A stretch of 64,000 nucleotides of DNA from contig OY730476.1 in assembly GCA_963422735.1 (NCBI GenBank), positions 1,696,001-1,760,000 of the forward strand. Direction: 5' to 3'. The translations under genes and the position numbers were made by a program. This DNA comes from Candidatus Latescibacterota bacterium. GTDB taxonomy: Bacteria; Latescibacterota; UBA2968; UBA8231. Positions within the stretch are counted from its first letter, which is position 1. Every line of letters begins with the position of its first letter. Under the pieces are notes generated by a model, which was not told the origin of the DNA, ran no database searches, and was given only the letters and a program-made list of their open reading frames with translations. Below are positions 31,943-35,734 of this stretch, piece after piece.

Positions 31943-34900
31943 TTAGGCTGCCGTCAGGCCCACGAAGAGCCGGCTGGACAGGCTGGTCAGCGGCTCGACC
32001 TCGCCGCGCACAGCCGCCCTAGCAAAGACTACGCCTGGCTGCGCGGCCCTAGCGGCCCGACCCAAAATGTGGTAATCGGCGCGACCGGGCTGTTGGGCCG
32101 CTTCCCGCGCCTCGGTCCAGCCTTGGTTGGTAGCGGCCAAGCCCCATAAAGCACGCGGTGCCCGCACCTTGGTCTCCTCGACCGATAGGCCGTCGCGCCA
32201 ACAACCGCGCTGGGCGAATAGACCGCCGTCTTCCCGATAGATCAGCCCGCCGCCCACGTATTGGATCAACTGCTGTTGGCTGCCCCGCGCCCCCGATAGC
32301 GTCAACAAGGCTAGGGTCCCCAAGTCGTTGTCGTCGAAATCGGCCTGCCGGTAGAAAGCCGCCACTAACTCGTCGCTGTACATTTGCCACTCGTCCCAAT
32401 TGATCTCTTTGGGTTGCTCAGGCCACTCCCTGCTCGAACCCAAGAAGGGATTGAAGGAGGCCCCCGACTGCTTGCAGACCTCAAAGCCGCGCCGCGTTAG
32501 CTGGTCGAGCACTTCCAGTGCTCGCTCCCAACCCTCGCGCTGCAGCACCTGAGCTAGCAAGCGGTTGAGTGTGCGCTTGGTGAATAGCCGGCTGCCATCC
32601 ACGGCCCCTTTGGTCAGCTCCTCCACTTCAGCGCGACCTTCCTCGGTGCGGCACAGCCGAGCCAAGCCCCAGCTCATGCCGTGATAGTTGTCGGCTATGT
32701 AGCGCCATACATCCGCATCGCGCTGTATGTGTCCGGCCACCGACAGCGCGGTTCCGGCTTCGGCCTGAGCTTCTTCAGTGAGGGGCAAAAACACCTCGAT
32801 GTGGTCGCCGTCGAAATCTAGCTCCATCAGTCGGCAAACGCGCGGATGGACGCGCACGGCAGCCCCGGCCAAACGCTGCGGACGAAAGGCCACCACCGCA
32901 GTGGGCGGCACGTGGCCCTCGTCCACCAGCACCCGCTGGGCACTGTACAGCAGCACCCACGAGCGTGCCATAATCGCGTCTAGAACCTCAGCCGCTCGGG
33001 CTGAACGCCGCGCACGACCCATCTCCCGCTCTACCTGAGGCCCAAACAAAGCCCAAGCCATTTCCTCGGGCAGGCCCACTTGGTCGAGATTCAGTTCAAA
33101 GCCCGAAGCGAGCGCGGCTCGGCCACTGAACAGCGGTCTGGCCTCGAAGTGAAGGAACTCCGGGCGCAACAACGCGGCAAAAAAATCCTCCACCCGTTGG
33201 GCCACCTGGGCCACTGCGGGGCCGGTTAGGGCCTCGGGTGCATCGCTATCGACGACGCGTTGCAAGCGCTCATTGGCTTCGACCAAATCCTCGAAGCAGG
33301 CTCGGATTGGATCGAACTCGGTCCTCGCGGGCAAGGCAACGGGAGACCCCACCGTCCCGATCTGGTGCCCCGGGGCCCACGGGTGCGGCACTAGCTGGGC
33401 CAAGGTCAGCCCCTCGGGCTCGGCAAAGGAAAAGCGCAACTCCGCGCCCGCCAATTTGGCCCGTATCCCGGCCATACCCAACAACTGCTGCAACAAGGCA
33501 AAGCGCGGGGACGGGGCTGGGGACGGGGACACCGGGCCGGTGGTTAGGCGCTGGCCCAGCGTATTGGCGTCGGGCCGCTCAGCTGCGGCCGTGTTGAACA
33601 AAGCGTGGATATTGGCTACGGCCCCGGCCTCACACAAAGCTCCGTAGGCCATCATATCGAGCTCTGGGCCGCCGGCCCTTGCCACCGCGGTTTCCAAGCG
33701 TTCGGCCGCGGTGTGGGTCAGGCGGCCCCAGTACACCCAACCCACGGTACTGCGATAGGGCAGCTTTGCGCCTTTGAGGGTCAGTTGCTCCATGCCGTCT
33801 TCGGGCAGTCCCGCCTCGACTAGACGCGCTTTCAACATCTCTTCGCTGGGTGCCTCGAAAGGCGGCACCACCGCCGGAGTCTCTTCGGCCCGGGCAATGC
33901 GACCCATGACCGCCTCGCGCTGCTGGCCGAAATTGAGCCGCGAGACCATACTGGTGGGACTGAAGATGAGCTCTACCAGCGCCCCATCGGGCAACTGCGG
34001 CATGTCGGCGTCGGGCAGGATGCGGGTCACCACCCCTTTGGCACCGTGGCGATTGCCCATGCGGTCTCCCACCCCGACTGCGGCGGGAAAATTCATCCGC
34101 GCCGCAGCCGACTCGCTGATGACCAAGCCATCCTCAAACGTGTCCCCGTCCCACATGATGAAGGCGGTCAGCAGATTGTACCCACCCCAAAAGTCGGGGG
34201 CTTCGGGCTCGTATCCCGTCTGCACTAGAGCTGGCTCGGGTTTGTTGCCCTTAGAGGCCAAGCACTGGTCGTACTGCTGGCGGAACCAACCCGTAGAGTG
34301 GACCGGAGCCGCTGTATCGGCGGCACTCGTCCACTGGCGCATCATGTTGATGCCCATCAGGGCGCGATTGGTATCGTCGTGTTCGAGAAAGGGCACCATG
34401 GAGGCCGAAAAGCCCAAGATGCTGTCGGGCGCATTGTCGATCCGTTCGAGCTTGCCGTCGCGGATGCGAGCCCCGCGGGCCACTTCGAGCACGCGGCCAA
34501 TATTGGGGCCCTCAGGGGTGCAGTAGGGGCACACTAGGCCGTATTGGCTGTAGGGGAAAACGCCCTGATCGTCAAAAGGCTCGACGACAACGGGGATCAA
34601 AGTCAGCCGCCGCAGATGGGTATAGCGGTCGAGCCAGTTGGTCGCCTGTAGGTACTGCGAGGTTTCCCCCAAGTGGAAGTCGCGCATCCAGGCGTCCAGC
34701 GGCAGCCAGTTGCGCACCAAGTCGCCGTCCCAAGCCAACTGTTCGGGGGCCACCTCCAACCTTTGGTCAATAAAGTCGTAGAGCTGCTCACCCACGCACA
34801 GAATCCGCGCTTGTTCGAGCGCACGCCGGTCGGGATAGGGAACCACGACCCGGTAGTTGCCTTCAATGTGGAAAAGGCCGTCTCGGTCGGGCCGCGGCAA

Positions 34901-35092
34901 ATCCCGGTACTCAACCTCGACCGAGGCATGGCCGAGCCCCAAACTCAGTTTAACGGAAAAAGTATAAGGGTCCTGTTGTTCGACTCGATAATCGGCCAGC
35001 GGCAAGCGCTCGCCCAAAAGCCGGGGCAGTCGCTGGTGGACGAAAAGGTCAAAGGACTCCCGGTGCCAAGGTACGTCGAGATTCAATGTCAT
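31943..35092 (-). CDS. Minimal single-chain RNA polymerase beta-beta' fusion protein (1049 aa)
   Basis: Collinear beta motifs ([25 protein letters not shown], FED...ISE, GD.M..RHG.KG, SR.N.GQ) then beta' motifs (clamp helices, SGR, [19 protein letters not shown], region H). GGAGG RBS; ATGA overlap with the sigma stop. Confidence 0.92.
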   Translation of the reverse strand: [1049 protein letters not shown]

Positions 35093-35688
35093 TGATGTTC
35101 CTCCGGGTTATTAATGGCCTGCCAAGCCCGTGAGATCTGGCGGCGGCCGTGGTGCAGACGCGACTTTACGGTGCCTTCGGGAATGCCCAGTCGCTCGGCC
35201 GCATCTCGCACTTCGACTTGGGCGTCGTAGATCAGACGGAAAACCTCGCGCTTGTCCTCGGACAGTGCCTGTACTTGTCGCCGCAGCCAGCGCTGCTGGT
35301 CGGCCCGTTCCACCTCGGCGTCGGGGCGCTCAGACGCGGCCTCAATCATCCATTCGGGCACTTGGTGCGTTTCCTTCTCCACGGTTTCAGACAGCATTTC
35401 CAGCCGTTGCTCCCGCCGCCTTTGCACAGTGCGCAGGTGAGTTAGAGAAAGATGAGTAGCAATGCGGAACAGCCAGCCAGCCGCAGAGCCTCGACCGCTC
35501 CATTGGCCAGCTCGGTTCCACACCCGCAAGAAAACCTCCTGCACCACGTCGTTGGTACTCGCATCATCGCGGACGATGCGGCGCACGTGGTGGTGGATCT
35601 GCTCCCGATAGCGCTCAAAGAACTGCTCAAACGCGCGGGCATCGCGTTCTTTTATTTGCACTATGAGTTGTGAGTCCGGTATCTGCAT
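35089..35688 (-). CDS. ECF-family sigma-70 factor (199 aa)
   Basis: ATG at 35688 after GGAGG; region 2 DVVQEVFLRVW..WLFRIA; region 4 AAERLGIPEGTVKSRL. Confidence 0.93.
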   Translation of the reverse strand: MQIPDSQLIVQIKERDARAFEQFFERYREQIHHHVRRIVRDDASTNDVVQEVFLRVWNRAGQWSGRGSAAGWLFRIATHLSLTHLRTVQRRREQRLEMLSETVEKETHQVPEWMIEAASERPDAEVERADQQRWLRRQVQALSEDKREVFRLIYDAQVEVRDAAERLGIPEGTVKSRLHHGRRQISRAWQAINNPEEHQ

Positions 35689-35708
35689 CGAGGCCCTCCG
35701 CAGATAAA

Positions 35709-35734
35709 GACGCCGCCCGGAAAGTACAGGTTCA
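35709..35734 (-). promoter_or_regulatory. Putative ECF-sigma (autoregulatory) promoter TGAACC-N16-CGTC
   Basis: Minus strand TGAACC tgtactttccgggcgg CGTCT, 20 nt before the sigma ATG; matches the general ECF AAC/CGT pattern and spacing. Confidence 0.65.

Follow-up and report, generated by a model that had tools for sequence, protein, structure and literature searches.

A reduced single-chain beta-beta' RNA polymerase homologue linked to an ECF sigma factor in Latescibacterota and other bacterial phyla

Introduction

Textbooks describe a single RNA polymerase core per bacterium. Does the genome of a Candidatus Latescibacterota bacterium (GenBank assembly GCA_963422735.1, contig OY730476.1) encode a second one? 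The question is raised by two adjacent genes in the 64,000-nt stretch between positions 1,696,001 and 1,760,000 of this contig, hereafter called the window. One gene encodes a sigma factor of the extracytoplasmic function (ECF) type. The other encodes a protein of 1049 residues that resembles bacterial RNA polymerase's beta and beta' subunits joined in one chain, which we call the mini-polymerase. The two genes and their promoter are referred to as the cassette. A model that read the sequence alone (the original prediction) had proposed a second, pared-down RNA polymerase of beta/beta' ancestry, kept together with an ECF sigma factor. A deletion pattern that recurs among relatives, the linkage to the sigma gene and a ratio of nonsynonymous to synonymous substitution rates (dN/dS) of about 0.16 now bear out this core proposal. 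The pair is a drastically reduced, sigma-linked variant of bacterial RNA polymerase, undescribed as far as we searched. The cassette comprises the following parts.

31943 to 35092, minus strand: mini-polymerase gene (single-chain beta-beta'), 1049 codons plus stop, identified by translation, Pfam and NCBIfam
35089 to 35688, minus strand: ECF sigma gene, encoding 199 aa from its likely start (ATG at 35688), with a conserved linker between the sigma-2 and sigma-4 regions
35694 to 35699, minus strand: putative ribosome-binding site GGAGGG, read from the sequence, 5 nt 5' of the sigma start codon
35703 to 35737, minus strand: ECF-type promoter of the cassette, with -35 TGAAC at 35734-35730, -10 GCGTC at 35713-35709 and a 16-nt spacer

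The mini-polymerase combines beta and beta' cores

The reading frame of the mini-polymerase is intact, with zero internal stops, and its ATG overlaps the TGA of the sigma gene as ATGA. All the motif strings listed in the original prediction, those of beta followed by those of beta', were present in the translation, and the predicted overlap with an ECF sigma gene was also read from the sequence. A search with hidden Markov models of the Rpb1 and Rpb2 domains, suggested along with that prediction, located Rpb2 domain 3 (residues 146-210), Rpb2 domain 6 and Rpb1 domain 2 in this order along the chain. The score of 103 bits for Rpb2 domain 6 (cut-off 23.4) identified a barrel of the beta type, and that of 43 bits for Rpb1 domain 2 (cut-off 25.3), in a match covering the DFDGD motif, one of the beta' type. 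The bacterial rpoB and rpoC models of NCBIfam gave E-values of 2e-46 and 1e-21, and the archaeal polymerase models scored lower. The equivalog thresholds were missed, with 158.1 bits for TIGR02013 (cut-off 801.15) and 76.5 bits for TIGR02386 (cut-off 963.5). The 1049-aa protein is thus a single chain built of reduced bacterial beta and beta' cores, with about 40% of the combined length of the host's own RpoB (1264 aa) and RpoC (1367 aa).

An AlphaFold2 monomer model built with 30 family members was compact, with a predicted local distance difference test score (pLDDT) of 91.4 and a predicted template modelling score of 0.88. Its best matches among solved structures were bacterial beta and beta' chains, and matches in a viral structure library were weaker. 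The host genome is a single contig of 4,953,052 bases, and the separate canonical genes that the original prediction wanted confirmed are both on it. Full-length rpoB (1814 bits) and rpoC (1765 bits) occupy 161.8-169.6 kb, some 1.56 Mb away from the window. The presence of these genes and of the cassette on one contig counters the worry that the gene is an assembly chimera.

The retained and missing parts were mapped with BLASTP and a family profile against the host's own RpoB and RpoC. The mini-polymerase resembles the canonical subunits in having both double-psi barrels, the fork region, the clamp helices, the funnel region and the C-terminal conserved region. It differs in being one chain and in missing the lobe, external domain, flap, zinc ribbon, rudder, trigger loop and jaw. 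The features of the chain are as follows.

33458 to 35092, minus strand: beta-derived half (about residues 1-545), with a short N-terminal region, the fork, a flap-less beta barrel and the beta C-terminal region
31946 to 33457, minus strand: beta'-derived half (about residues 546-1049), with N-terminal strands without zinc ribbon, clamp helices, beta' barrel, funnel region, a long helix at the position of the bridge helix and the C-terminal conserved region
34130 to 34138, minus strand: FED motif of the beta barrel, residues 319-321
34034 to 34069, minus strand: 12-residue motif of the beta barrel that contains GDRMGNRHG, residues 342-353
33170 to 33322, minus strand: clamp helices, a coiled coil, residues 591-641, formed in the model by helices 591-615 and 620-641
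32804 to 32818, minus strand: metal-binding DFDGD motif in the beta' barrel, residues 759-763
32096 to 32182, minus strand: long helix at the bridge-helix position, residues 971-999 (helix 971-999 in the model), aligned to the start of the bridge-helix region of RpoC

On the beta side, the retained segments of the host's own RpoB are residues 130-154 (a weak match), 397-531 (the fork), 598-657 and 742-774, which is the first half of the barrel and ends at FED. These are followed by residues 1026-1259, from the second half of the barrel to the C-terminus, and this barrel half has 41% identity to the own RpoB. On the beta' side, the retained segments of the host's own RpoC are residues 260-479, from the clamp helices to the DFDGD barrel, and 556-774, from the funnel region to the start of the bridge helix. 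The clamp helices align without gaps to RpoC 265-303. The C-terminal conserved motif and two N-terminal strand motifs of beta' were matched to the own RpoC by eye. The original prediction had paired the two N-terminal motifs. This pairing drew no support from E-values, but by eye it fitted the N-terminus of the own RpoC with a four-cysteine stretch of about 75 residues missing.

The lobe and external domain are gone, and the own RpoB 155-396 has no counterpart. The entire flap is also missing, with no counterpart of RpoB 775-1025 and an alignment that passes straight from RpoB 774 to 1030, and the distance from FED to GDRMGNRHG is about 20 residues, compared with about 255 in the own RpoB. In the beta' half, the four-cysteine zinc ribbon was excised as the RpoC stretch between '..ASPE' and 'GHIELA..', and about 20 residues are missing at the rudder. 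The RpoC region from 775 to about 1285 has no counterpart. Since only 50 residues remain after the helix at the bridge position, the chain has neither a trigger loop nor a jaw. This helix is 29 residues long in the model and poorly conserved in sequence.

Family, distribution and selection

The original prediction called for a search for homologues of 900-1,100 aa, and a large family with the same deletion pattern was found. An exhaustive HMMER search returned 319 representative clusters at E<=1e-30. A word-seeded search gave full-coverage relatives of 1002-1074 aa with identities down to 44% among the matches listed, and the named ones were all hypothetical proteins. In contigs from one genome per species, 224 stretches encode a relative of the mini-polymerase. 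Eighty of these stretches were used for all locus-level counts of the sigma gene and promoter given below. Since many of the 80 are closely related, these counts lack independence. Their labels are Latescibacterota, Poribacteria, Gemmatimonadota bins, Chloroflexota, Planctomycetota, Armatimonadota, Hydrogenedentota and Moanabacter, and the relatives span at least seven phyla. The gene is present in 66 of 168 genomes of the window's phylum and is therefore accessory. Within the window's genus, it is found in 21 of 30 genomes and is absent from some that are complete. A quick tree, unrooted and with labels taken from bin names, placed the members in deep Latescibacterota lineages, one Poribacteria clade and scattered Planctomycetota and Armatimonadota branches. 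Its shape would fit a mixture of vertical descent and transfer.

The mini-polymerase represents a real family under selection. The median dN/dS was 0.16, with a range of 0.13-0.21 over 120 pairs of 16 close genes, and both halves of the protein were constrained. Residue conservation was determined over 173 near-full-length members, which are 35-91% identical to the window protein. The aspartates of DFDGD were retained in 95% (D759), 98% (D761) and 96% (D763) of the members, and the acidic pair of FED in 93% (E320) and 97% (D321). In the GDRMGNRHG motif, G342 and R348 were present in 100%, D343 in 99%, H349 in 97% and K352 in 94%. The fork region was strongly conserved as well, and its arginines were kept in 97-98%. 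At the bridge position, the commonest residue of the helix mostly reached 21-62%, with E973 (87%), L985 (83%) and G984 (78%) standing higher.

Plasmids gave no tblastn match to the mini-polymerase at E<=1e-20, and none of the PADLOC defence models (0 families) matched it at E<=0.01. Viral contigs held no close relatives; the best tblastn match, at E 6e-17, was a distant beta/beta' pair encoded by two genes.

Some genomes departed from the usual single intact copy. One carries a 373-aa remnant matching residues 747-1048 (G135), and another a copy without the first 91 residues (G146). Both copies are decayed and neither genome has the sigma gene, implying that the cassette is sometimes lost. An 8.4-Mb genome (G071) has two diverged whole cassettes (L029 and L064), whose polymerases are 45% and 42% identical to that of the window. 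Each has its own sigma gene and their promoters differ, one with a 15-nt spacer and the other with a weak site 250 nt upstream. Other single-chain clusters with Rpb2 domain 6 and Rpb1 domain 2 have representatives of 1221 to 1787 aa, and one protein reaches 2246 aa. Reduced beta-beta' fusions may thus form a wider, unexplored range.

The sigma factor and its linkage to the mini-polymerase

The sigma start at ATG 35688 was chosen by agreement with homologues. The protein belongs to the ECF (group 4) sigma factors, with scores of 97.2 bits for TIGR02937 (cut-off 42.9), 55.9 for Sigma70_r2 (24) and 48.8 for Sigma70_r4_2 (25.7), and no match to region 1 or region 3 was listed in Pfam or NCBIfam. 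It falls in no specific NCBIfam equivalog, the best being PRK12515 with 112 bits against a cut-off of 236. The motifs of regions 2 and 4 look canonical. Among 24 aligned cassette sigma factors, the mean column identity was 61%, the linker between regions 2 and 4 included, and the linker prolines P111 and P122 were invariant.

In 69 of the 80 loci, a close homologue of this sigma gene precedes the polymerase gene on the same strand by no more than 300 nt, and 27 of these loci show the 4-nt overlap. In another seven, which form one Latescibacterota subgroup (L049, L050, L052, L065, L068, L071 and L076), it lies 1.2-2.0 kb upstream. Two loci could not be judged because of contig ends, and two (L017 and L078) have no sigma gene. 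The ECF gene, whose constant upstream position the original prediction wanted tested, is upstream in the first two groups and missing from the last pair. The phylum gave the same picture. The sigma factor was detected at E<=1e-40 in 63 of the 168 genomes, and 62 genomes hold both genes. The four genomes with the polymerase alone comprise two truncated or remnant copies, one contig edge and one sigma deletion (L017). A single genome has the sigma gene alone, at a contig edge; this case aside, no such sigma was found in the genomes of the phylum without a mini-polymerase. A lack of sigma linkage would have spoken against the original prediction, and the linkage proved to be conserved both across the loci and in the phylum.

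No third conserved neighbour accompanies the pair across loci, and the next downstream gene is convergent in most of the 35 loci examined. No anti-sigma gene adjoins the sigma gene in any locus group, nor does the mini-polymerase contain an anti-sigma domain (Pfam, E<=1). In one locus of the subgroup with distant sigma genes (L049:4162-5958), a 598-aa open reading frame with ABC-transporter ATPase motifs, recognized by eye, lies between the sigma and polymerase genes, so the operon there would also encode an exporter.

A conserved ECF-type promoter of the cassette

The consensus of the cassette promoter is TGAAC-N16-GYGTC, of the ECF type, and in the window its -10 element ends 20 nt before the sigma ATG. 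The pattern GAAC-N(15-16)-G[TC]GTC was found upstream of the sigma gene in 30 of 34 non-redundant loci, with a spacer of exactly 16 in 29. A weight matrix was built from 28 loci, which match it by construction, and the window site was left out for its own scoring. With this matrix, 72 of the 80 loci had exactly one site above 17 bits and none had two. All 72 sites are on the gene strand. Seventy-one lie upstream of the sigma gene, with a median of 22 nt from the -10 element to the start codon, and one (L078) lies directly upstream of the polymerase gene.

The window site scored 24.0 bits and was the sole strong match in the 4.95-Mb genome. The other genomic matches above 12 bits numbered 24, compared with 25 in a simulated genome, and were thus at chance level. 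An exact-pattern search of other genomes likewise found the sigma-upstream site alone in two of them (G080 and G042). In a third (G010), the sigma-upstream site was accompanied by two identical copies at a great distance from the cassette (C1:244168-244193 and 1476025-1476050), which are probably a repeated element. Two of the five other genomes examined gave no match to the exact pattern.

A proposed self-contained transcription module

What do these two genes do together? The reading that we favour, with a probability of roughly 0.45, is that the two genes make up a self-contained transcription module, disseminated among bacterial phyla, in which the protein is an active polymerase and the sigma factor its initiation factor. 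The module would consist of the conserved ECF-type promoter, a dedicated ECF sigma factor and the translationally coupled 1049-aa single-chain polymerase. Derived from the catalytic cores of beta and beta', this polymerase would be an active enzyme without a trigger loop. The sigma factor would dock on the retained clamp helices, and its unusually conserved linker would lie in the remodelled RNA-exit region. Guided in this way to the module's own promoter, the mini-polymerase would transcribe its own operon. The outcome would be an auto-amplifying, orthogonal loop with a logic comparable to that of a T7 autogene.

The architecture, the family, its selection, the linkage of sigma gene and promoter and the near-absence of further promoter copies are observed; catalysis, the binding of sigma to the mini-polymerase and the auto-amplifying loop we infer from several features. 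Because the active site is under selection, the mini-polymerase is taken as a working polymerase despite the missing trigger loop, and other two-barrel enzymes also manage without a canonical one. The strict co-occurrence of the two genes and the coupling of their translation favour a role of sigma as the polymerase's own initiation factor, as do the retention of the clamp helices, the conservation of the linker and the absence of any other detectable sigma target. The prediction of a complex between the two proteins also favours it. A fuller version of this reading is offered tentatively, as one that we would rather not bet on. It would see in at least seven phyla a natural, orthogonal second transcription system of cellular-type parts, with a polymerase of about 115 kDa that lacks flap, trigger loop and zinc ribbon. 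An ECF sigma factor and a promoter, both private and the sigma docked non-canonically, would complete it as a portable auto-amplifying loop. Such a system might produce primers, RNA copied from foreign or unusual templates, or long RNA of the read-through or antisense kind.

Several observations weigh against the module. In canonical polymerases, the clamp helices are the main docking site of sigma region 2, and the flap tip anchors region 4 in the holoenzyme. The mini-polymerase has lost the flap, and the zinc ribbon and rudder with it. Within the clamp helices, R271, E291 and A298 of the host's own RpoC are replaced by A606, A626 and R633, which are the family's commonest residues at these positions (71%, 69% and 67%). 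The three RpoC residues presumably correspond to R275, E295 and A302 of E. coli beta', positions that matter when sigma-70 binds. The missing flap and the altered clamp-helix positions would argue against a simple canonical docking of sigma. Moreover, one locus (L017:5700-9144, in genome G143) has lost the promoter and the sigma gene, of which the last codons remain, and retains an intact polymerase gene of 1047 aa. No other copy of the cassette sigma was found in this single-contig genome at E<=1e-40. The dN/dS on the terminal branch of its polymerase was about 0.14 by a rough three-point estimate, with no sign of relaxed constraint. The promoter geometry and sigma region 2 are also those of ordinary ECF systems, so the host core could serve the promoter.

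The complex prediction is a further soft point. Sigma and residues 250-1049 of the polymerase, that is, the chain without residues 1-249, gave a score of 0.44 compared with 0.02 for the best control, which was graded as 'weak support'. Of 80 solved complexes, 58 attained the mark that this score passes, and of 110 mismatched pairs, 2 did so. Passes at or below 0.60, which included both of these mismatches and 7 of the solved complexes, are more often wrong than right. The runs had at least 43% of contacts in common, and the partner had a pLDDT of 67. Since sigma-polymerase complexes have already been solved, the pass may reflect likeness only, and the modelled complex would argue for sigma binding weakly.

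Alternative explanations

The main rival explanation is that the sigma factor uses the host core, as a classical autoregulated ECF sigma whose whole regulon is this operon, and that the mini-polymerase is the regulated effector. The canonical ECF geometry of the promoter (GAAC-type -35, 16-nt spacer, CGTC-like -10), the canonical sigma motifs, the lost region-4 anchor, the three differing clamp-helix positions and the intact polymerase of the L017 genome speak for it. A second locus without the sigma gene fits as well (L078:5143-8385, in a Chthonomonadaceae bin): there, a promoter-like site of 18.0 bits stands directly upstream of the polymerase gene, and no sigma gene occurs in the 5 kb upstream. 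An accompanying sigma would also guarantee expression after transfer between phyla. However, within the phylum this sigma never occurs without the polymerase, save for the one contig-edge case, and translational coupling is typical of partners. The retained clamp helices, the conserved sigma linker and the predicted complex also speak for contact between the two proteins. With no anti-sigma or other input evident, the positive feedback would be unchecked and would need another brake. On balance, we hold the host-core explanation for possible but rather doubtful. The same applies to its effector part, by which the polymerase, lacking a trigger loop, would act without sigma on RNA, on single-stranded or foreign DNA or in priming, and might titrate sigma as feedback.

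A non-polymerising decoy has also been considered, in which the protein mimics RNA polymerase and binds sigma in place of an anti-sigma factor or soaks up polymerase-binding factors or inhibitors. The lack of an anti-sigma gene beside sigma in any group, the retained clamp helices, the strongly conserved fork and the predicted complex could all be read in this way. A decoy, however, needs no metal-binding aspartates, acidic pair or basic barrel residues, and these are kept in 93-100% of the members down to 35% identity. The conservation of the catalytic residues makes a pure mimic or anti-sigma role unlikely; besides, the protein lacks an anti-sigma domain, and 1049 residues would be a costly sigma trap. 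Nor do we think it likely that the mini-polymerase is non-autonomous and forms a hybrid enzyme with the host alpha dimer, omega or other host factors. Its descent from bacterial beta and beta' would suit this view, and canonical fused RpoBC enzymes still use alpha and omega. However, the cassette moves among at least seven phyla with sigma as the one constant partner, and the monomer model is compact and confident. Far less probable than any of these is a decaying rpoBC duplicate or an assembly artefact. Decay does occur occasionally, as in G135 and G146. The original prediction had expected a decaying duplicate to show a dN/dS near 1, whereas the value is about 0.16 and the same architecture recurs in hundreds of genomes. 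The genome is a single contig, and one contig of sequencing run X2, which may be the source sample itself, covers the whole stretch.

Comparison with known systems

Full-length RpoBC fusions of the Helicobacter and Wolbachia types (NF007172 and NF011417) also carry beta before beta' in one polypeptide. These models of complete subunits, however, have about 2,840-2,890 residues, and the fusions replace the separate genes, whereas the mini-polymerase coexists with rpoB and rpoC. It scored 148.3 bits against the NF007172 cut-off of 5372 and 135.5 bits against the NF011417 cut-off of 4632.

The nearest architectural parallel, as far as published descriptions allow the comparison, may be K2ORF6p of the yeast cytoplasmic linear plasmids (pGKL2). 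It is described as a 982-aa Rpb2::Rpb1-like fusion with about half of the coding sequence deleted (PMC2919709), and the fusion is called unknown in any other RNA polymerase (PMC6211774). Unlike the mini-polymerase, K2ORF6p is described there with a separate small subunit that carries the beta' C-terminal regions and with an upstream conserved sequence in place of a sigma factor (PMC6211774). Its ancestry is eukaryotic or viral, and by description this sets it apart from the mini-polymerase.

YonO of the Bacillus SPbeta prophage is described as a single chain of about 100 kDa that is homologous to multisubunit polymerases and active alone (PMC5467207). It is comparable by description in being a single chain. 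The same source gives its homology to beta/beta' as very distant and its origin as a prophage (PMC5467207), whereas the mini-polymerase is clearly of the bacterial beta/beta' type, chromosomal and tied to a sigma factor, with no phage genes nearby. The original prediction's statement that YonO is the more diverged from RpoB/C agrees with this account, set beside the strong similarity of the mini-polymerase. On two viral contigs (L096:7176-12936 and L087:7425-13117), a beta-like protein of about 900 aa and a beta'-like one of about 1000 aa, both compact, are encoded by genes with overlapping ends. In contrast to the mini-polymerase, these are two genes that are not fused. They are distant relatives, and together they reach about 1,900 aa, well below cellular size.

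The cassette also resembles ECF sigma/anti-sigma modules. An autoregulated ECF sigma, a GAAC-type -35, a CGTC-like -10 and a co-transcribed next gene are all predicted for it from sequence. It differs in that the partner is a polymerase homologue instead of an anti-sigma factor, and in that its promoter apparently has no other genomic copy.

Full-text literature searching found no description of the family or of its pairing with sigma, in line with the original prediction, which knew of none; a mention in Iyer and Aravind 2012 (J Struct Biol) is not excluded by this search. The passages of PMC2919709, PMC7826278, PMC7824862 and PMC6211774 reached by term look-up do not mention the family or the pairing. 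The main text of the ECF classification PMC7826278 does not contain 'Rpb', 'RpoB' or 'RpoC'.

Implications

If the favoured reading is true, a second chromosomal polymerase of the cellular type with its own sigma factor would be an exception to the single-core rule. As a minimal form of the enzyme found in nature, it would also reveal which of about 2,600 residues are dispensable. The questions raised are how sigma could function without flap and zinc ribbon, and how catalysis could proceed without a trigger loop. A polymerase of 1049 aa, a sigma factor of 199 aa and a promoter of about 30 bp would make an attractive orthogonal expression tool. Even if the sigma factor does no more than drive expression, hundreds of genomes keep under selection an effector that is a polymerase still in need of explanation.

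Genomic setting

The ten flanking open reading frames within about 8 kb encode PhyH dioxygenases, GFO/IDH/MocA oxidoreductases, methyltransferases, an AstE/AspA-like enzyme, a nucleoside hydrolase and a topoisomerase. No anti-sigma, alpha-subunit, ribosomal or phage gene is among these ten, as the original prediction had stated. A gap of 2 nt separates the ends of the mini-polymerase gene and of the convergent dioxygenase gene (window 31940-31945), and there is no terminator-like hairpin between them; transcripts of both sides would overlap. Scans for sigma-70 promoters and terminators in 31500-36000 were at chance level and gave nothing 3' of the mini-polymerase gene.

None of the sequencing runs listed is recorded as RNA. 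One run, guessed to be RNA, contained seven short fragments with at least 99% identity, four in the mini-polymerase gene and three in its neighbours, with junk loose ends. These are contigs of uncertain kind and uninformative on transcription.

Between 27998 and 39471 of the window, the cassette lies amid three PhyH-type dioxygenase, two GFO/IDH/MocA oxidoreductase and two methyltransferase genes. Part of this set is common to the 18-19 closest relatives, and the set could represent a small metabolic island that has nothing to do with the cassette.

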